A stretch of DNA of 64,000 bases from NCBI GenBank assembly GCA_003193925.1, contig PSPG01000004.1, positions 110,863 through 174,862 on the forward strand, in the 5' to 3' direction. Origin of the DNA: Candidatus Thalassarchaeum betae (GTDB lineage: Archaea > Thermoplasmatota > Poseidoniia > Poseidoniales > Thalassarchaeaceae). The notes under the pieces were generated by a model. That model ran no database searches, was not told where the DNA came from, and saw only the letters and a program-made list of their open reading frames with translations. Positions 35,136 to 44,547 of this stretch are shown in pieces. Each line of letters opens with the position of its first letter. Position 1 is the stretch's first letter. The translations under genes were made by a program, and so were the position numbers.

Positions 35136-35432
35136 TCAGACGTTGGTGGTCAGAGAGAGCAGGTCGCTCTGACCGGGTTCCAAAATGCACAGTGCGCTCA
35201 CCGGAAACGGCTTTGCGCATGCCGCCCCCAGTTGGCGATTGACCAGCTCGACCCTGTGGACGGTGACGTCAGGGTGACGCTCGGTCAGGTCAGAGATGTA
35301 GCCTTCGGGGCAGTTCGCGGCGACCAGCACCAATCTGGCATCGCCCTTGGCGCATGCGCTCATGGTCTGCCTCTGGCCAAACAGGACGCTGCCCGTGTTC
35401 ATCCCCTGCTTGAGTTGCCGTGCTATATCCAT
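35136..35432 (-). CDS. rpl30e: Ribosomal protein eL30 (L30e)
   Basis: TGSVLFG, AANCP, LGAACAKPF, GQSDLL; follows rpoA''. Confidence 0.93.
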   Translation of the reverse strand: MDIARQLKQGMNTGSVLFGQRQTMSACAKGDARLVLVAANCPEGYISDLTERHPDVTVHRVELVNRQLGAACAKPFPVSALCILEPGQSDLLSLTTNV

Positions 35433-35445
35433 AGTCAGCCCTCGG

Positions 35446-37017
35446 TCAAACGTTCTCGGGAATGTAGAACAGGTCGACGCTTCCAGTGCCCAGTGCCACG
35501 GGTTGTCCGACGATGATGTTCTCGGTCACCCCCCTGAGCTCGTCTCGCTCTCCGATGACCCCAGCCTGGAGCAGATGGGTGACCGTGACCTCGAAGGCGG
35601 AGCGTGCGAGGATGCTGTGCTTGGTGCCGCTGACGCCGTGCCTGCCTATCGCTCGGACCGCGCCTTCGCTGGTCATTACGTCCGACACGGTCAGAAGATG
35701 GCGGATGTCGACCTCGAGTCCGGCTCCCTCAAGCGTGTCCGACATCTCGTTGATTATCGCTTGCCTGGCAGCCTCGATACCGAGATACCCATTGATCTCG
35801 GTAATGTTGTTGGTGTAGGTCCTCGACCTGTCGACCCCGGCGAACTCGCTGACCTTGGCCAGGTTGGAGCCGATGGTAGAGATGTAGTACTCCCCGGTCT
35901 CCCTGCTGGGGCCCTGTACATTGGCACGGACGACGTCGGGCAGTCCCTTCAGACGCAGTTTCTTGATCTTATCTTCGAGCTGTAGGAGCGCGGTGTAGGT
36001 CGGCGGATCGTTGGCCAGACTGGCGAGGTCCTCCTCCTTGGTGACTCCCGGGATAATCTTCAGGACCTTTGGGCGGTCCTCGTTGTCAGCCTGGATGTGG
36101 AGTCGGAGAGCCCGGGACAACTTGTCCCTGACTTCGGCCCCAGTCATGCCCTTGCGCCTGAGATTGGAAACGATGAGATGCAAGCTGATGTGGCGTTGCG
36201 TGATCTCGACGTCGATCTTGGCGATATCGAGCGTGGTGGTCATCTCGACTCCAGCGGCGATTTTCAGGACCGCCTTCTCATTGGTGTTCAGCGGCTTGCC
36301 CTTCGAATCGAGCTCTTCGAGATATATCAGCATGGTCGGGGTCTTGGGGACCTTGCGTGCGTCCACTATCTCGATGACTCTTGGCAGCCCCTGGGTCACG
36401 TTCACAGTGGCGACTCCTGCATAGTGGAAGGTTCGCATTGTCATCTGAGTACCCGGCTCCCCTATGGACTGGGCTGTGGTGATGCCGACGGCCTCGTGCG
36501 GGTCGGCCCTGGCGCTGGATAGGGCTGACCAAGTGGACTCAATCACCTTCCTCGCCTTCGGCTTGGTTAGTTTCTTGATACCTCTGGCGCGGACGCCATC
36601 GACCAAGTCACCGATCATGCGCGGAGTCAGATTGATGTTCATCCCGATCGAGAGCTCGCGGAGCTGCTGATAGATCTCGTCGTCGGTGTCCACGTCCCGG
36701 AGAATCTGCTTCATCTTGGCATCTGGGTCGTAGTCCTGCAATGGCAGGGACTTCTTCTTGCGGCGCCTGGAGACAGCCCTGCGTCGCACGATGGTCTTCT
36801 CGGCCTGAGCTGCGGCCCTAGACGGCTTGGTGGAGGTCTCCATCACTCTGTGGATCTCTTGAGCCGACCCCGAATCGATTCCGCAGATCTGCGCGATCTG
36901 CCCCGAGGTGAGGATCTTCACATCATCCCACTTGCGATCATCGGCGAGCTTGTGAGAGTACTCCTCGGCTATGCCGAGATCCATGAGTTTCTTCTTAGTG
37001 GCGCTCTTGACTACCAT
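35446..37017 (-). CDS. rpoA2: RNA polymerase subunit A'' (Rpo1C) with N-terminal extension
   Basis: [46 protein letters not shown]. Confidence 0.97.
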
Positions 37018-40000
37018 CAGTCCTCACCTCCAAGAGCGTCATCGAGGACCTGTACGACATCAAAGGGGGAGCCCTTGCGGCTGCGGGCGGGGTCTATGCC
37101 GTCCTCGCCGTACTCGAACTGGATGATGCGGCCCGCCGTGTTGCGCACCGAGTTCATCCCGTCGTCGGAGACCTTGAGGTCATCCATCGCGTTGATCAGG
37201 CGGCGCTGCATGTAGCCGGACTTACTGGTTCTGACTGCGGTGTCCACGAGGGACTCGCGGCCGGACACGGAGAGCATGAAGAACTCGGTCGGCTCGAGGC
37301 CGCGCTTGAACGAGGAGGAGACGAATCCCTTCTCCTTGGCGCCCTTGACCCCCCGTGGAAAGTGGGCTAGCACGCGATCCTGGTAGCCACGCTCGAGGCG
37401 CTTGCCGCGGACCTTGGGCTGGCCGATGGAGCCGGCCATCATCGCGAGGTTGTCCATCGAGCCGCGAGCGCCGGAGACGGCCATCAGAACGGCCGGGTTG
37501 TCATCAGGCAGGTGGGCCTTGGCCACCTCTCCGGACTCGGCCTTGCCCTGGTCGAGGATTTGGAGGATATTCTCCTCGAGCGTCTCGAGGGGGGTCCTTC
37601 CGGGTCGGGCCTCGTAATGGCGGCCATCCTTGCCGAAGTTCGCCAGCTCGGCGTCGACCTCGTCGCTGGCCCTGCGGTTGATCTCGGCGATCTCGACCTT
37701 GGCCTCGGGGGGCAGGTCCTCGTCGTCGATGCCTGTGGTGAATCCCATGGCGGTGCATATGGCGATCGTCATCTTGGTCATCCTGTTCAGGAACTCTGCT
37801 CCGACATCGGAGCCGTGAGTCTGGACCACGGCGTCGAGCAAGCGTCCGTCCTCGGCGCCGATGCCGCGCTTGTCTATGGTGCCGCTGACCTGCCCTCCGG
37901 AGACAATGACCTCATCACCCGAGCGGCTGGTGTATTGCAGTTTGAATCCCCCTGGGACGATCAGGCTCAGTATGTCGGTTCCGCGGTATCCCACAGCCCC
38001 GTCCACCTGGACCTCCTCGGGGAGGTCGCCGTCCCAGCCGATGGCACCGAGGATCTCCAAGACGAGGTTCTTGGGCAGGATCCTGTCACCGTGTGTGAGC
38101 AGGTAGGCTCCTGAGATGTGGTCGTGGATGCCCCCGATCACACTGCCTCCGTAGCGGGGAGTGATGATGTGCTCCTGCACGCGCATGAGTATCTTGGCCT
38201 CTGCGCGTGCCTCCTCGCTCTGGATGATGTGCAGGTTCATCTCGTCGCCGTCGAAGTCGGCATTGTACGGAGTGCAGTCGGCCAGGTTGAATCTGAAGGT
38301 CTTGCCCTGCATTACTCGGATCTCGTGGACCAGCATGGACATCCTGTGAAGTGACGGCTGTCGGTTGAATATGGCGACGTCGCCGTCGATCAAGTGCCTC
38401 TCCACGATGACGCCTGGCTGCGGGTTGCCGTCCCTGTCGAGGGTGCTCAGCCTGTCCTCGATCTCGGTGGAGTAAGCATTGCCGTACTCATCCTCGATCT
38501 CGGGGCTGCCGCAGTGTGGGCAGATGACCTCCAGATGCTCTGGGAAGTACTCACCCGGGTTGGAATGCTCCCACTTCCATCTGTTGTGGATGATCCCCTT
38601 GTGGTCTTTCTCGGGAAGCGGCTGGCCGCGCTCGTCCTCTCCCTTGAGATTTGAAATCGTCGCCTCCAGGTCGACTCCCCACTCCTCCTCGAGCTCACCG
38701 ATGGAGTTCCTGCGCATCTGGCGCTTGAGCGCCAAGCCGGGCAGGAAGTTCGGGGCGGGCAGGACCTCGTTGAGGTCAGGCCTGTAGCCGGTGTAGGGCT
38801 CGTCCTCGCTGTCAGCGACGCCAGGGAGGCACTCTGGGTTCAGGCAGCGGAAGCCCGCCCAGATGTACTTGGTGCGGTCTGTGATCCGGACTCTGAAGTG
38901 GTCCCCGCGCACGATGTAATTGACACCCGGATGCACATCGGGTCCACGCAGGACCATCTGTCGCAGCTGCTCGCGATTGCGGCTGGTCACCCTGATTGGC
39001 ACGGTGAGCTCCTTCGCCGTCTTTTCGGGCACGCCGACCTCGTTGATGCCGAGGTTGGGATCGGGGCTGATCACCGTGCGTGCGCAGAAGTTGACGCGCT
39101 TTCCGGAGAGGTTGCTTCGGAATCTGCCCTCCTTGCCCTTCAGGCGCTGGGCGAGGGTCTTGAGGGGTCGGCCGGAGCGGTGTCGGGCCGGCGGGATCCC
39201 ACTGGTCTGATTGTCGAAGTAGGTGGTGCAGTGGTACTGCAGCAACTCCCACAGATCCTCCACGATGAGTTGGGGAGCGCCGGCGTCGCGGTTCTCGCGC
39301 AGCCGCTGGTTGATTCTGAGGACGTCCACCAGCTTGTGGGTGAGGTCATCCTCGGAGCGGTCACCGCTGTCGAGGGTGATCGAGGGGCGGACCGTGATTG
39401 GGGGTACTGGAAGAACCTTCATGATTACCCACTCGGGACGGCTGGAGTCCTTGTCCATCCCGAGGAATATCAGGTGCTCGTCGGGAATCCTCTCTAGCCA
39501 CTCGCGGATATCCCTGGCGTTGAGTTTGTGCTCCCCCTTGTCGGCCTTCTTCTCCTTGAATGTAGAAGGCTTGTCGAGGATGATCTTGCCCTGCTCGGAA
39601 CCACAGTGCATGCAGATGACCCTCCTCTTATGGGCGCACTCCTTCTCTATGTCCTTGATGATCTTCTTGAACTCGCGGGAGCCGACTCCGTGCTTGATCA
39701 TGATGTCATGAATGCGGTCCCTGTAGAAGTCCTGCTCGGACTTCTCTGGATCTAGGGGGTGGGTCTCAGCGGAACTGTGCAGAAGCACCTTGCTACATTT
39801 GTTGCAGGTCGACTTCAGCGCTGTTTTGAGGAGATTCGTGAAGCCGATGTGGATGATCGGCAACTCCAGCGCGATGTGTCCGAAGTGGCTTGGGCACTCC
39901 TCGTGTTTGTTGCCGCAGGTCTCACAGCGGATCCCGGGGTCGATAACGCCCATCTTTGGGTCCATCAGCCCCTGCTTGTACGCGTGCCCGTCGTCCTTGT

Positions 40001-40118
40001 AGGTGTCAGCGGTCTTGATTTCGACAGCGGACATCTTACGAATCTCGTTGGGATCCATCAAACCGAACTTGATCGACTCGATCCTCTTCGGGATCTTGGC
40101 TGCGTCGCGCGCACTCAT
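37017..40118 (-). CDS. rpoA1: RNA polymerase subunit A' (Rpo1N) with large insertion
   Basis: Catalytic [28 protein letters not shown]; start MSARD overlaps the rpoB stop. Confidence 0.98.
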
Positions 40119-43100
40119 CTTCGGTCCCCCAGCTCCAGCCTCATAGCCACGCCGAGACTCTTCATCTCGTCGAGCAGCAACTTGAATGCGTAGGAAGTCT
40201 GCACGGTGTGGACGTCTGAGCGATCGCCGCAATACGGGCAGACCGTGGTCCTCCTCTTCCAGTCGTAGTAGGCGATGTGCCCGCAGCCTTTTGTGTTGCA
40301 GACCATCAGGTTCCAGCCGTCAGATTCGTCCAGCAGCCTGTCCTTGATGACCATTGACGCACCGTGGGATATCAGGCAGTCACGCTCCATCTCGCCGAAC
40401 CTCAGTCCACCCTGGCGGGCACGGCCCTCAGTCGGTTGGCGTGTCAGGATCTGGACGCGTCCGCGGCTGCGGGCGTGCAGCTTGCTGCTGACCAAGTGGT
40501 GCAGCCTCTGGTAATAGATGACGCCGACGAACACCTCGGCGGAGTAGGCCTCACCGGTCTCTCCGTTGATCATGGGCTCGCGACCGGTGTGGTTGAAGCC
40601 GTTTCGCAGGAGTCCCGACCGCAGAGAGTCCTCCTTCTCTCCTGTGAAGGCGGTTCCGTCGACCTTGCGACCCTCCAGCGAGCCGACCTTGCCGCCGACC
40701 ATCTCGAGTACGTGCGCGACTGTCATCCTCGAGGGAATCGCGTGGGGATTGATCAGGAGGTCGGGTATGATACCATCGGCAGTGAAAGGCATGTCCTCCT
40801 CATCGACGAGTCGCCCAATCACGCCCTTCTGCCCGTGACGGCTGGCGAACTTGTCCCCCAGCTCTGGGATCTTGTTGGTCCTGAGGGTGATTCTCACGAG
40901 TCGTCCCGAGTCGAGGGACTCGGTGACGAACACATTGTCGACCCAGCCTTCCTCGCCGTGTCGAACCAGCATCGACGACTCCCTCCTCTCCTGGGCTTGT
41001 AGGAAGGCACCGTGAGCCTCCTCCAGGAAGCGTGGCGGACTGGTCTTCCCGACCAGAACTACTCTGTCGGACTTGTCAAGGGTGGATAGGTATTCCTCGG
41101 GCACGGGCAGACCGTCCCTCTCGAGGTGGGAATAGCTCTCCCAGGACCTCAGTCCCTTGACCTCGTCGAGACCGGTTCCGGGCACTTCTATGCGCTCCTC
41201 CTGCCCGCCCGGGAAGCGTTTGTTCTCGGCGTTGTACGTGCGCACGAACGTCGAGCGTGCCAGAGCGCGCTCGACGGATGCGCGATTCATGATCACAGCG
41301 TCTTGCATATTGTAGCCGTGCTGGCTCATGATGGCTACGACGAAGTTCTGGCCGCCTGGCCGTTTGTTGAAGTTGGTCGACTCCATCGCACGGGTACCCA
41401 CGATGGCCTGCTGCGGGTAGTGCATGATGTGAGCGCGTGTGTCGGGACGGAGTCGGAAGTTGGCACTGGGCAGGCCCAAGCTCTGCTTGACCATCGCCGT
41501 CCCGCCGGTGACGCGGGGCGTCGAGTTGTGCTCTGGGTATGGGACCAGGGAAGCGCACACTCCCAGAATGAGCTGGGGGTCTATCTCGACGTGAGTGTAG
41601 ACGAGGACGGTGTTATTCTTGTTCTGCTTCCTCCTGAGAGCGTCGATACCCTCCTGATAGTAATTGAGGGGTTGACTGAACTCCTCGTAGACGGAATCGC
41701 CGTTAGGCAACTGGACCTCGACGCCCAGTTTAGCCTCGGATATCTCTTCCTCACCGAGGTTCAACCACTCCACCTTGGTGGGGTTGATCGGCCTGCCGTG
41801 CTTAGGTGAGATCAACGGTAGGTCGTATGGGCGAGGGGCAATCAACAGGTCCTCCTCCTCCTCTGCGTCAACCCACTCTACGACGCCTGTGGAAACCAAG
41901 TCGGAAAAAGTCAAATCGCCTGATCTCAGTCCATACAGATGCGTCTTGGAGAGATTCAGGCTGCCGTGCTCGATAACCAGTAAAGGACGCAGCATCCTGC
42001 CTCTGTCAGTGTTGATGTAGACATCGCGGTTGGCCGAATCATGGCGGATGCTGACCTCCGGTCGGATTCTTCCCGAACGCCTGCGTCGCTTGAACTGGGC
42101 AACCAGCTTGTTGGGCCTCTTGTGCAGGCCGAAGATGTCGCCGTTGACGTGGATTCTAGAGCCGACGGCCCACTGGATGGGGGATGAGTCCACGCCCGCC
42201 TCAATCAGGAGCTCTTTGACATCATCCTCTGGTACCTCCTCGGAGACGTCGATCATCTGGGCCGCGTTCTTCACCAGACCACAGTTCTGACCCTCCGGAG
42301 TCTCGTTGGGACACAGTCTGCCCCAATGGGTCGGGTGTAGATCACGTGCCTCGAAGTGCGGCTGGCTGCGAACCAGCGGGCTTGTGACCCTGCGCATGTG
42401 GGAAAGTGCTGCGATGTAGGTGGTTCGGTCAAGCAACTGGCTCACTCCGGAGCGGCCGCCTACCCAGTTTCCAGTAGCGAGAGCGTGCATAATCTTGGAA
42501 GTTAGGACGTCAGGACGCAGACAGGAGTTGATCTTCAACTCGCGCTTGCGGTTGTGGTGTCGCTCCAACTGGTACTTGAGGTCCCGAGCGAGTTGCTGCA
42601 TACTGACTCGGAACAGGTCCTCCATGAGGTCGCCGGCCAACCGGACTCGCTTGTTGGCGTAGTGGTCCTTGTCGTTCGGGTCTCGGTTGGTGATGGCCAT
42701 CTCGAGTACCTGTCGAACGATTCGGCCGAGGAAGATTGATTTCTTATGACGGTGATCCGGCGAAGAGCCCAAGTGGGGCAGGAGTTCCTTGTCCAGCAGG
42801 TTCTGGATGCGGGACTCGCGGTACTCCTTCTGCTGGCCGGCGGCGAACTTCTTCTCCAGCCATGATACGGCCTCTTCCTCCGTCTCGACTCCGTACTCCT
42901 CGTTGTCCTTGACATCGTTGAGGTTGGCCACAGTGTACTTCATCGCCTGTACCGGCCCTGCGATCGAGGCGAATATCTCCTTGTCGTTCTCCATCCCGAG
43001 AGCGCGCATGAGGAGGACGACCGGGATGGCTGTCGTACCAGCGCTGGGAATCTTGACCATCAGCATGCCGTCGCGTCGCTTCTCGACGTTGAGTGGCTTA

Positions 43101-43828
43101 CGAACGCCGTCCCTCTGTGAGAATATCTTGGCGACCTCGGTCTCATGGGCGTACTTCTTGTTCTTCTCGACGGTGACTCGGTTGGGAGCCAGATCCTCCA
43201 TCGAGATGAGCACGCGCTCGGTGCCGTTGATAATGAAGTAGCCACCGGGGTCCAGCGGGTCTTCACCAGCCTTGCGCAGCAATTGGGTGAGGTACTCCGC
43301 GTCCTCGGCGGAGGTCTCGGGCGAGAGTTTCCTGTTCTCGTCGATGTGGTCAGCGTGCACATTGCATCTGGCAGAGCGGACCATGATGGGTAGGTTCCCG
43401 ATGTGCACGCCCTCCTCGTTGATGTATCCGAGGTCGCCGTCGGGTGTATCCGGTGGTATGTCGTCGCGGTAGATGCGGAAGTCGAGGTACACAGGGGAGA
43501 AGTAAGTCAACTTGCGAATGCGGCACTCTAGCGGGGTGGCCGGGTGCTCGGCTCCGTTGGCCTCACGAATGGTAGGTTGGCCCAGCCTGATGTTCTTCAG
43601 GCGGACTAAGATCTCCTTGTCGAGGACGTCGAGTTTGATGCATCCGCCTTCCCCCTCTCCTCCAGGGAGATCCTCGACGGGCTCGTCGGTGCCTATGCGG
43701 ATGGCGCGTACTATCTTCTCCATCCTGCTGAGGCGACCGTCACCAGCAGGGATGCAGTCATTGTAGGACATCAACTGGTGGTTGACGAGGCTCCGCTGCT
43801 TGAAGTAGCTCGAAACTATCTCCTTCAT
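40115..43828 (-). CDS. rpoB: RNA polymerase subunit B (Rpo2, unsplit)
   Basis: GGYFIING.ERV, ETPEGQNCGL, GDKFASRHGQKG, GLRFGEMERD. Confidence 0.98.
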   Translation of the reverse strand: MKEIVSSYFKQRSLVNHQLMSYNDCIPAGDGRLSRMEKIVRAIRIGTDEPVEDLPGGEGEGGCIKLDVLDKEILVRLKNIRLGQPTIREANGAEHPATPLECRIRKLTYFSPVYLDFRIYRDDIPPDTPDGDLGYINEEGVHIGNLPIMVRSARCNVHADHIDENRKLSPETSAEDAEYLTQLLRKAGEDPLDPGGYFIINGTERVLISMEDLAPNRVTVEKNKKYAHETEVAKIFSQRDGVRKPLNVEKRRDGMLMVKIPSAGTTAIPVVLLMRALGMENDKEIFASIAGPVQAMKYTVANLNDVKDNEEYGVETEEEAVSWLEKKFAAGQQKEYRESRIQNLLDKELLPHLGSSPDHRHKKSIFLGRIVRQVLEMAITNRDPNDKDHYANKRVRLAGDLMEDLFRVSMQQLARDLKYQLERHHNRKRELKINSCLRPDVLTSKIMHALATGNWVGGRSGVSQLLDRTTYIAALSHMRRVTSPLVRSQPHFEARDLHPTHWGRLCPNETPEGQNCGLVKNAAQMIDVSEEVPEDDVKELLIEAGVDSSPIQWAVGSRIHVNGDIFGLHKRPNKLVAQFKRRRRSGRIRPEVSIRHDSANRDVYINTDRGRMLRPLLVIEHGSLNLSKTHLYGLRSGDLTFSDLVSTGVVEWVDAEEEEDLLIAPRPYDLPLISPKHGRPINPTKVEWLNLGEEEISEAKLGVEVQLPNGDSVYEEFSQPLNYYQEGIDALRRKQNKNNTVLVYTHVEIDPQLILGVCASLVPYPEHNSTPRVTGGTAMVKQSLGLPSANFRLRPDTRAHIMHYPQQAIVGTRAMESTNFNKRPGGQNFVVAIMSQHGYNMQDAVIMNRASVERALARSTFVRTYNAENKRFPGGQEERIEVPGTGLDEVKGLRSWESYSHLERDGLPVPEEYLSTLDKSDRVVLVGKTSPPRFLEEAHGAFLQAQERRESSMLVRHGEEGWVDNVFVTESLDSGRLVRITLRTNKIPELGDKFASRHGQKGVIGRLVDEEDMPFTADGIIPDLLINPHAIPSRMTVAHVLEMVGGKVGSLEGRKVDGTAFTGEKEDSLRSGLLRNGFNHTGREPMINGETGEAYSAEVFVGVIYYQRLHHLVSSKLHARSRGRVQILTRQPTEGRARQGGLRFGEMERDCLISHGASMVIKDRLLDESDGWNLMVCNTKGCGHIAYYDWKRRTTVCPYCGDRSDVHTVQTSYAFKLLLDEMKSLGVAMRLELGDRR

Positions 43829-43837
43829 CTTCTCACC

Positions 43838-44425
43838 TCAAGCGGTCTCGACTATCAGCCTGTAAGCGGTACTCGAACCGGCCGAGCGGCTGTGACGGAC
43901 GATACGTACGATTCTGTTTGCAAGCCAGCCTGCTGGAAGTTCGTCATCCTCGATCTCCACCGCCTCCTTGATAGCCTGGACTGCTGGGTCGGTGATCAGA
44001 ATCTTCGGCAGAAGCTCCTTGGCAAGACGCGTACCTCCGTCGGATTGCTCCTCCAGCAGACGCCAGGGGGCCAAGGCCTGCTCCTCCTCCTCGACCGGGA
44101 GCAACTCATGATGCGGGACGAGAATGTGATTCAGGACGTTGAAGCGGTCATCCCCGGTCGGGATGTCCATGTCCAAGAGGGCTTTGCGGGAGATGGTGAT
44201 CCTACCAGAGCGGCTCCTCTTGCGCGAAGCCATCTGCTCCCTGATGACGGCCATCACGTTCTCGAGATCGGCATCGCCAGTCTCGAGTTCAAGCTTCTTG
44301 GCGACCTGGTCGACCGTCATCCGCTTGATGGCGTCCATGTTGGCATCGTCGGCCAATCTGTGGGCGTGCTTCTCGGAGATTCCGAGTTCCATCAGACGCT
44401 TTTTTGTGGAACTCTTCACTGCCAT
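43838..44425 (-). CDS. rpoH: RNA polymerase subunit H (Rpo5) with N-terminal extension
   Basis: NHILVPHHELL, LPKILITDP, IVRIVRHSRSAG...YRLIV; about 195 aa versus the usual ~80. Confidence 0.92.
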   Translation of the reverse strand: MAVKSSTKKRLMELGISEKHAHRLADDANMDAIKRMTVDQVAKKLELETGDADLENVMAVIREQMASRKRSRSGRITISRKALLDMDIPTGDDRFNVLNHILVPHHELLPVEEEEQALAPWRLLEEQSDGGTRLAKELLPKILITDPAVQAIKEAVEIEDDELPAGWLANRIVRIVRHSRSAGSSTAYRLIVETA

Positions 44426-44473
44426 ATTGCGCCCCCTACCCAACCAAAACCGTGGGCCTGAGGCGCTGTCAGG

Positions 44474-44547
44474 CGGGCCTGATGGGATTCGAACCCACGG
44501 CCACCGGGTTAAAAGCCCGGCGCTCTACCTGACTAAGCTACAGGCCC
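44474..44547 (-). tRNA. tRNA-Lys(UUU)
   Basis: Reverse complement GGGCCTG...CCGGG-CTTTTAA-CCCGG...GTTCGAATC...CAGGCCCG; full CCA not encoded. Confidence 0.95.

Follow-up and report, generated by a model that had tools for sequence, protein, structure and literature searches.

Copies of one N-terminal module on the RpoH and RpoA'' subunits of the Poseidoniales RNA polymerase, and its recurrence on unrelated proteins of marine contigs

In the bacterial RNA polymerase, the alpha subunit ends in a small domain of the helix-hairpin-helix (HhH) type, more precisely (HhH)2, which sits on a flexible linker, is present in two identical copies and docks onto DNA and regulators (the alpha C-terminal domain, alpha-CTD). 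On the downstream-DNA side of the enzyme, archaeal Rpo5 (RpoH) is without the ~130-amino acid (aa) jaw of eukaryotic Rpb5, and the positively charged groove that remains there is filled by this jaw in eukaryotes, by a beta' insertion in some bacteria and, in Sulfolobales, by Rpo13, which consists of a helical motif and a lysine-rich tail reaching the DNA entry channel (all according to passages of PMC2675907). Here we analyze a 64,000-nt stretch of contig PSPG01000004.1 (the whole stretch is called “the window” below) from Candidatus Thalassarchaeum betae, a member of the archaeal order Poseidoniales, known as Marine Group II (source genome of 1.48 Mb, 92% complete), in which the polymerase subunits RpoH and RpoA'' start with copies of the same ~62-aa module, each followed by a basic linker.

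Compared to these systems, the RpoH copy is like the eukaryotic Rpb5 jaw, located on the downstream-DNA side (same passages of PMC2675907), in preceding the Rpb5/RpoH assembly domain as an additional domain, presumably on that same side, but unlike the jaw (~130 aa) it is only ~62 aa long, predicted to be all-helical, followed by a basic linker and also found on RpoA''. With Rpo13 of Sulfolobales and Desulfurococcales, it shares the character of a lineage-specific, small helical element with a very basic tail, yet Rpo13 has a helix-turn-helix core and stands as a subunit by itself, whereas the module is fused to two subunits and predicted to form five helices. Finally, a small (HhH)2-type domain (a predicted one in the modules), a flexible linker and two copies per enzyme also characterize the bacterial alpha-CTD, from which the modules differ in being N-terminal, borne by two different subunits and acidic in their cores. 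The two genes and their parts are as follows (ORF, open reading frame; pN and pS, non-synonymous and synonymous differences per site):

44425..43838, minus strand: rpoH, 195 aa (ORF list)
44240..44425, minus strand: RpoH N-terminal module, aa 1-62 (BLASTP against RpoA'', AlphaFold2 model, fold matches, pN/pS, charges)
44144..44239, minus strand: RpoH basic linker, aa 63-94 (translation, alignment, charges; without Pfam or NCBIfam model)
43838..44143, minus strand: canonical C-terminal (assembly) domain of RpoH/Rpb5, aa 95-195 and stop (Pfam PF01191; NCBIfam NF007129)
37024..37031, minus strand: GGAGGTGA, a Shine-Dalgarno-like site 6 nt 5' of the rpoA'' ATG, within the end of rpoA'
37017..35446, minus strand: rpoA'', 523 aa (ORF list)
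36832..37017, minus strand: RpoA'' N-terminal module, aa 1-62 (BLASTP; pN/pS)
36703..36831, minus strand: RpoA'' basic linker, aa 63-105 (translation, charges, pN/pS)
35446..36702, minus strand: canonical body of RpoA'', aa ~106-523 and stop (TIGR02389; Pfam Rpb1_5)

Residues 1-52 of RpoH and RpoA'' align without any gap, with 25 identical and 40 positive positions out of 52 (BLASTP, single comparison, E=8e-14), and identity is highest at the very start (18 of the first 27 residues). Basic stretches come after each aligned part (RKRSRSGR in RpoH), so that both the shared extra domain and the basic linkers described in an initial annotation of this DNA are borne out. Within the window's own genome the module occurs in exactly two copies (E<=10), one on each of the two subunits, i.e., two per polymerase as had been proposed. 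Overall, ~94 residues of RpoH and ~105-130 residues of RpoA'' lie beyond the canonical models. The rest of RpoH is matched by Pfam PF01191 (Rpb5_C) at aa 95-191 (E=8.8e-15, 54.7 bits, above the family cut-off of 23.5) and by NCBIfam NF007129 (RpoH) at aa 94-193, and that of RpoA'' by TIGR02389 at aa 131-517 (model positions 3-365 of 367, E=4.3e-121, 404.4 bits, just below the curated cut-off of 420.65) and by Pfam Rpb1_5 at aa 111-468 (155.3 bits vs. a cut-off of 28.5), an identity that also fits its position in the operon.

Are these extensions translated? The TGA stop of rpoA' overlaps the ATG of rpoA'' (TGATG), and of eight rpoA'' genes compared across three families, seven have a GGAGGTG-like site at the position of the Shine-Dalgarno-like site, while L035 reads GGGGGGTG there. 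The same start was found in 15 of 15 aligned genes, again from three families, and its ATG is conserved. Evolutionarily, pN is far below pS in the rpoH module (0.055 vs. 0.636) as in the rpoH Rpb5_C domain (0.099 vs. 0.732; dN/dS ~0.04 for both, 20 genus-level genes), and lower still in the rpoA'' module (pN 0.033, pS 0.628, dN/dS ~0.02, 19 genus-level genes) than in the linker (pN 0.135, pS 0.663, dN/dS 0.09) or the first 95 canonical residues of the same 19-gene set (pN 0.158, pS 0.689, dN/dS 0.09), the contrast between pN and pS being solid and the dN/dS ratios only rough, since synonymous sites are near saturation. At the level of codon comparison, both module copies are thus kept under strong purifying selection. 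That the extensions are an artefact, i.e., untranslated 5' regions or mis-called starts, is so improbable as to be negligible: amino acids are conserved while synonymous sites change freely, and the conserved ATG, the Shine-Dalgarno site, the stop/start overlap and the common start all speak against it. Translation from the upstream starts, rather than from starts further downstream, is thereby upheld.

To describe the distribution of the module, we searched related genomes and broader samples of the class and of the phylum. The RpoH module used as query matched all of 41 relatives (three families, ten genera), with two matches in 39 of them; the two relatives with a single match are 72% and 63% complete. 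A 15-sequence profile of the module (A1) was used for the class and phylum samples, which overlap. In the class sample, it matched every genome of families f1 (25/25) and f3 (50/50) and none of f4 (0/43) or f5 (0/2), with Poseidoniales matched in 75 of 75 cases here and 70 of 70 in the phylum sample. The 230 non-Poseidoniales genomes of the phylum sample gave just 17 weak matches (E 0.0059-0.08) in unrelated frames, and the module was not found in the 45 genomes resembling Marine Group III (f4 and f5, which presumably are this group) or in the other Thermoplasmatota sampled. As a control, open frames bearing Rpb5_C are 76-181 aa long in non-Poseidoniales Thermoplasmatota vs. 201-252 aa in Poseidoniales, where one frame of 141 aa is cut by a contig end. 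The long RpoH frames of family f22 (160-181 aa) had been candidate module carriers, and were rejected: they carry nothing more than a short tail of basic residues, or the frame runs into a tRNA lying upstream, and the module is absent, as it is from the two longest frames outside Poseidoniales. Both copies thus occur in all Poseidoniales genomes of the class and phylum samples, and the module has no Pfam or NCBIfam model, which agrees with the lineage-specific and uncatalogued domain that the initial annotation anticipated. We conclude that the feature is almost certainly real, translated and order-wide.

The two copies also carry signatures of their own across families, with K10, D13, K29, W30 and C45 invariant in the RpoA'' copies, and E13 and N29 in the RpoH copies. 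The duplication is therefore an old one, without ongoing homogenisation of the copies. As judged from these alignments and from the distribution, a duplication had placed the ~62-aa module at the start of both RpoA'' and RpoH by the time that Poseidoniales radiated. In f4 and f5, RpoH is canonical (~80 aa), and RpoA'' (758-860 aa; L039:553-2847 and L041:289-2868, both plus strand; L040 and L042, minus strand) has an N-terminal extension of its own of ~390 aa. No Pfam family matches this extension, parts of which are HhH-like (in L041, HHH_5 with E=0.024). Its first ~45 residues show a weak resemblance to the module (hhalign probability 33%, E=4.6e-4, 43 columns), for which we do not claim homology. 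It is tempting to speculate that the module originated on RpoA'' and was then copied to RpoH in the ancestor of Poseidoniales.

The canonical part of RpoH has a peculiarity of its own, as Rpb5_C is unusually divergent in Poseidoniales (43841-44143, minus strand, in the window), with scores of 25-56 bits, as against 60-121 bits for those Thermoplasmatota searched that lie outside the order (a match truncated by a contig end is left out of this comparison). The matched span is also longer (291-324 nt vs. ~219 nt), and in many Poseidoniaceae the domain aligns just from model positions 25-29 onward.

To investigate the module further, we built an AlphaFold2 (AF2) model from alignment A1. This model (mean pLDDT, the predicted local distance difference test, of 83) has helices at residues 6-14, 18-24, 30-35, 38-44 and 52-65, and the predicted layout of helix-hairpin-helix, connector helix and helix-hairpin-helix corresponds to the SAM-like/(HhH)2 pattern. 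In a Foldseek search against the PDB, the top rows were the SARM1 SAM domain, XPF, FANCM/FAAP24, RAD51/RadA N-domains and NusA, with zero matches at E<=0.001. VIA-align (48,161 chains) likewise ranked SAM domains first (Z 7.7-6.8), followed by XPF HhH2 (6.8), Topo V (6.7), NusA (6.6) and FANCM (6.6); 74 chains reached Z>=5, and the matches (Z 7.7-5.4) superposed 57-64 of 66 residues at a root-mean-square deviation of 2.0-2.8 A. Because Z values below 8 are common for small helical models, this falls short of proof; a SAM-like/(HhH)2 fold is a reasonable assignment for the modelled module, and not proof of relationship. What the module shares with SAM and (HhH)2 domains (XPF/ERCC1, FANCM/FAAP24, Topo V, the NusA acidic repeats, the RAD51/RadA N-domain) is the five-helix arrangement. 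It differs from them in sequence, with an identity of 2-18%, no Pfam family at threshold, and a first hairpin reading G-[IV]-x, whereas a typical HhH hairpin is Gly-hydrophobic-Gly.

Pfam gave only sub-threshold matches for the extensions (RpoH aa 1-95 and RpoA'' aa 1-110, E<=10), none of them to a classical HhH family, the best being PF22357 (AF1548-like_C; E=0.067, 13.7 bits vs. a cut-off of 23.9), and a profile search of PDB sequences with the module returned nothing relevant. The Pfam jaw model, Rpb5_N, matched neither whole RpoH (E<=1) nor its aa 1-95 (E<=10). No polymerase chain appears in the PDB sequence matches (E<=10) or among the 50 fold matches listed, which does not exclude a relation to Rpo13, and the alpha-CTD is absent among the fold matches listed, which does not exclude a likeness to it either.

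The distribution of charge is the same in every copy: residues 1-10 carry +4, the core -4 to -8 and the linker +2 to +10 (+2 to +6 in 27 RpoH sequences; +10 in the RpoA'' of the window, +3 to +10 across eight genomes). Each copy consists of an invariant basic decapeptide, the acidic core and a basic linker of 30-45 aa by which it is attached to the canonical subunit. An acidic core is seen in each of the 27 RpoH and 22 RpoA'' copies, and acidic residues come directly after both hairpins in the alignment. Across both paralogues, 13 residues are invariant or nearly so (M1, V3, K4, S5, T7, K8, K9, L11, G15, A21, H22, L24 and A25), and all of them belong to the N-terminal arm or to the first helix-hairpin-helix. 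This bears on whether the two (HhH)2 modules could form a classical DNA-binding jaw, which would bind the downstream duplex directly and non-specifically and aid promoter opening or processivity, like the Rpb5 jaw or the alpha-CTDs. Such a jaw would be consistent with the fold resemblance to XPF, Topo V, FANCM (Z values above) and the RAD51/RadA N-domains, with the basic flanks (+4 decapeptide, +2 to +10 linkers), and with the direction of the RpoH N-terminus, towards the place where the Rpb5 jaw binds downstream DNA (in the same passages of PMC2675907). However, the folded core is acidic and just the decapeptide and the linker are basic, and classical HhH DNA binding is therefore doubtful; the acidic residues right behind both hairpins and the lack of a Pfam HhH match (E<=10) point the same way, and a jaw would leave unexplained both the invariance of S5, T7 and H22 and the copying of the exact N-terminus by unrelated proteins described below. 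We thus regard this explanation as unlikely. From the HhH/SAM-like module suggested initially, the predicted five-helix fold is retained, while its classical DNA-binding surface is put in doubt.

The module is not confined to polymerase subunits. A profile search against 1.84 billion representative proteins yielded 207 matches at E<=0.001, with 150 at E<=1e-10, and carriers were counted among the best 150 of these 207 matches, of which 52 were too short to judge (tail <60 aa). The 98 carriers judged comprise 22 that cluster with RpoA'', 13 that cluster with RpoH, 39 in 12 unrelated families (2-5 representatives each) and 24 singletons, some of which resemble broken polymerase fragments. The non-polymerase carriers come from unbinned marine contigs, and have residues 1 to ~35-45 in common before diverging.

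By start type, 46 of the 59 non-polymerase carriers scored are RpoA''-type, and the other 13 RpoH-type or ambiguous. This is relevant to a second alternative, in which the RpoH and RpoA'' modules would pair with each other, like XPF-ERCC1 or head-to-tail SAM domains, and strap around the downstream DNA channel. Many of the best fold matches are to domains that act in homodimers or heterodimers (Scm/Sfmbt SAM, XPF, FANCM-FAAP24), and the paralogues keep distinct signatures, as complementary surfaces would. Yet no result here shows a contact between modules or otherwise supports the pseudo-dimer imagined in the initial annotation, and the predominance of RpoA''-type starts among the carriers does not require an RpoH partner; we consider such a gate improbable.

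Carriers of diverse build include P0191 (1292 aa) and P0193, in which the module is near the C-terminus. Within the P0191 family, the module was found in 3 of 19 further homologues, and one homologue that is 71% identical is without it. In another member of this family, P0350 (1298 aa), the module is followed by a second, partial copy of the first hairpin and second helix, and thus appears to have been duplicated in tandem within one protein. Pfam and PHROGs searches of the carriers returned nothing except AAA_15/AAA_21 in P0195 (851 aa, a “predicted ATPase” in the JGI record). This protein combines C2H2 zinc fingers, an RpoH-type module at 93-147 and the AAA_15/AAA_21 ATPase, which is defence-like, with weak NCBIfam matches to the retron Eco8 effector and PtuA.

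One family of carriers, A7 (P0270, P0288, P0218, P0283, P0207 and P0199; ~215 aa, from unbinned marine contigs), has the module at its N-terminus and ends in [WF][DE]GLGSLFG (GLESLFG in one member, P0218/P0283). The last 11 residues of P0207 are those of the ribosomal stalk protein aP1 of the window's genome (L049:1480-1800, minus strand), and A7 also has an internal GFRGLGSLF motif. With a module start and a stalk-like end, alongside this internal motif, A7 mimics host termini at both ends. In the AF2 model of A7 (mean pLDDT 58), confidence is restricted to the five helices at the N-terminus, with block means of 75-85. Since the C-terminal tail of aP1 binds aEF1-alpha and aEF2 (according to passages of PMC4267659), the family that joins the module to this very part of the host stalk raises the idea that it is the ribosome, or translation factors, to which the modules would tether the polymerase. 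Against this, the stalk tail is seen in just one of at least 12 families, and the polymerase subunits themselves are without it, so that we regard such a link as very improbable.

As for the genomes in which these carriers reside, A7 was detected in none of 401 Poseidoniales genomes at E<=1e-25, in a search without a positive-control genome. The searched Poseidoniales bins (relatives, class and phylum samples) contained no non-polymerase carrier and at most two polymerase matches, but a third match lies on a further contig in G011 and G078. Scans of IMG/VR with A1, P0191, A2, P0288, P0316 and P0321 led to zero confirmed loci, P0224 and P0191 had no tblastn match among GenBank phages, species-representative genomes scanned with P0288 and P0316 contained none, and the ESM Atlas had no usable match for P0288. 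The contigs with members of the carrier clusters reach 144-169 kb, as for those encoding P0282, P0283, P0286, P0288, P0247 and P0329. Going by the record names, some come from under-0.22-micron fractions. Based on these absences and size-fraction labels, the elements that harbor the carriers are probably mobile or viral.

A scan of JGI metagenomes with the tail of the P0224 family (A3) recovered a single element, seen twice (L047 and L048, 43% GC), whose P0224 homologue is without the module; the hidden Markov model of the module finds nothing there. Its ORFs, as named by eye, include TFB-like, DNA methyltransferase-like, glycine-rich fibre-like, PP2C-like and Cas4-like products, and it resembles a virus or mobile element of archaea.

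Taken together, these observations lead us to favor, tentatively and at somewhat less than an even chance, a mechanism in which the module is a docking handle. It would be tethered on the downstream-DNA face of the polymerase (Rpo5/clamp-head/jaw), where its invariant polar surface would recognise a single, specific and conserved site of the host. This site could be the positively charged groove next to Rpo5, or else a host factor that is shared. The linkers, being basic, would lie along nucleic acid, probably touching it, and foreign-element proteins with a copied handle would plug into the same host site, one family adding a stalk tail. A docking handle is suggested rather than a generic DNA clamp because the polar surface is invariant, the core is acidic, and unrelated foreign proteins copy the exact N-terminus; in addition, the positively charged groove suits an acidic, helical module that RpoH carries on a basic tether at its N-terminus.

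Several points weigh against a docking handle. The partner is a putative one, and so is the position of the modules on the enzyme, the RpoA'' copy presumably lying near the jaw, going by the split site. The fold matches are below Z 8, and Foldseek gave none at E<=0.001. The (HhH)2 relatives XPF, Topo V and RAD51-N bind DNA, and the basic arm together with the first hairpin could likewise bind nucleic acid. Lastly, it is from absences and size-fraction labels that the carriers are called mobile or viral. Building on the docking handle, mobile elements or viruses of Marine Group II (MGII) might repeatedly have fused it to their own proteins, in one family together with the GTPase-recruiting stalk tail, in a molecular mimicry of host terminal peptides, which we regard as possible though doubtful.

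Listed in minus-strand order from tRNA-Lys through rpoH, rpoB, rpoA' and rpoA'' to a 98-aa ORF, the locus has the usual layout of the archaeal polymerase operon, and the features other than rpoH and rpoA'' are these:

44472..44547, minus strand: tRNA-Lys (anticodon TTT), 46 nt 5' of the rpoH start codon (ARAGORN)
40115..43828, minus strand: rpoB, unsplit, 1237 aa (named from its translation and place in the operon)
37017..40118, minus strand: rpoA', 1033 aa, with a probable ATG at 40118, inferred as the first Met past the rpoB stop (Pfam Rpb1 domains 1-5)
35136..35432, minus strand: 98-aa ORF directly 3' of rpoA'' (ORF list), which, going by the usual archaeal operon order, we take to be probably ribosomal protein L30e

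Frames 5' of rpoH in relatives have the same tRNA-like translation, and the arrangement of tRNA-Lys and rpoH thus looks conserved. A 176-nt contig from RNA library X5 spans 44372-44547 with zero differences, i.e., tRNA-Lys and the first 54 nt of rpoH, and a 531-nt contig from library X1 covers 43800-44255, leaving 44256-44371 uncovered, although such contigs cannot show transcription. Co-transcription of tRNA-Lys(TTT) and rpoH is possible. In RpoA', at aa ~460-600 as numbered in the 1071-aa frame, the match to Rpb1_2 is broken in two by an insertion of more than 100 aa, which contains a Cys-rich, zinc-ribbon-like stretch with a weak Zn_ribbon_PaaD match at aa 565-581.

In the full-text literature, we found no paper joining the polymerase of Marine Group II, or archaeal RpoH/Rpb5, with a helix-hairpin-helix domain, none on RpoH of Poseidoniales, and for N-terminal extensions of Rpo5 just the Sulfolobus structure paper. 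The domain also goes unmentioned in the portions available of PMC9258230, on lineage-specific archaeal families, and of the Charybdis-element preprint (10.1101/2025.08.03.668216), though the supplementary tables of these papers might list it. The core transcription enzyme of Poseidoniales appears unlike any archaeal polymerase in the literature found. If its pair of tethered SAM-like/(HhH)2 modules sits on the face that bears the Rpb5 jaw in eukaryotes and Rpo13 in Sulfolobales, this region of the polymerase would have been elaborated independently once more. A handle shared by dozens of unrelated proteins, with a stalk tail in one family, offers a testable lead to how mobile elements or viruses engage the host machinery, and the invariant N-terminal nonapeptide a sequence tag for finding such elements. 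If the mimicry is true, foreign proteins would plug into, or compete at, the transcription and translation machinery of the host, and the polymerase extension would be a place where host and parasite meet, in an archaeal group that ranks among the most abundant in the ocean.

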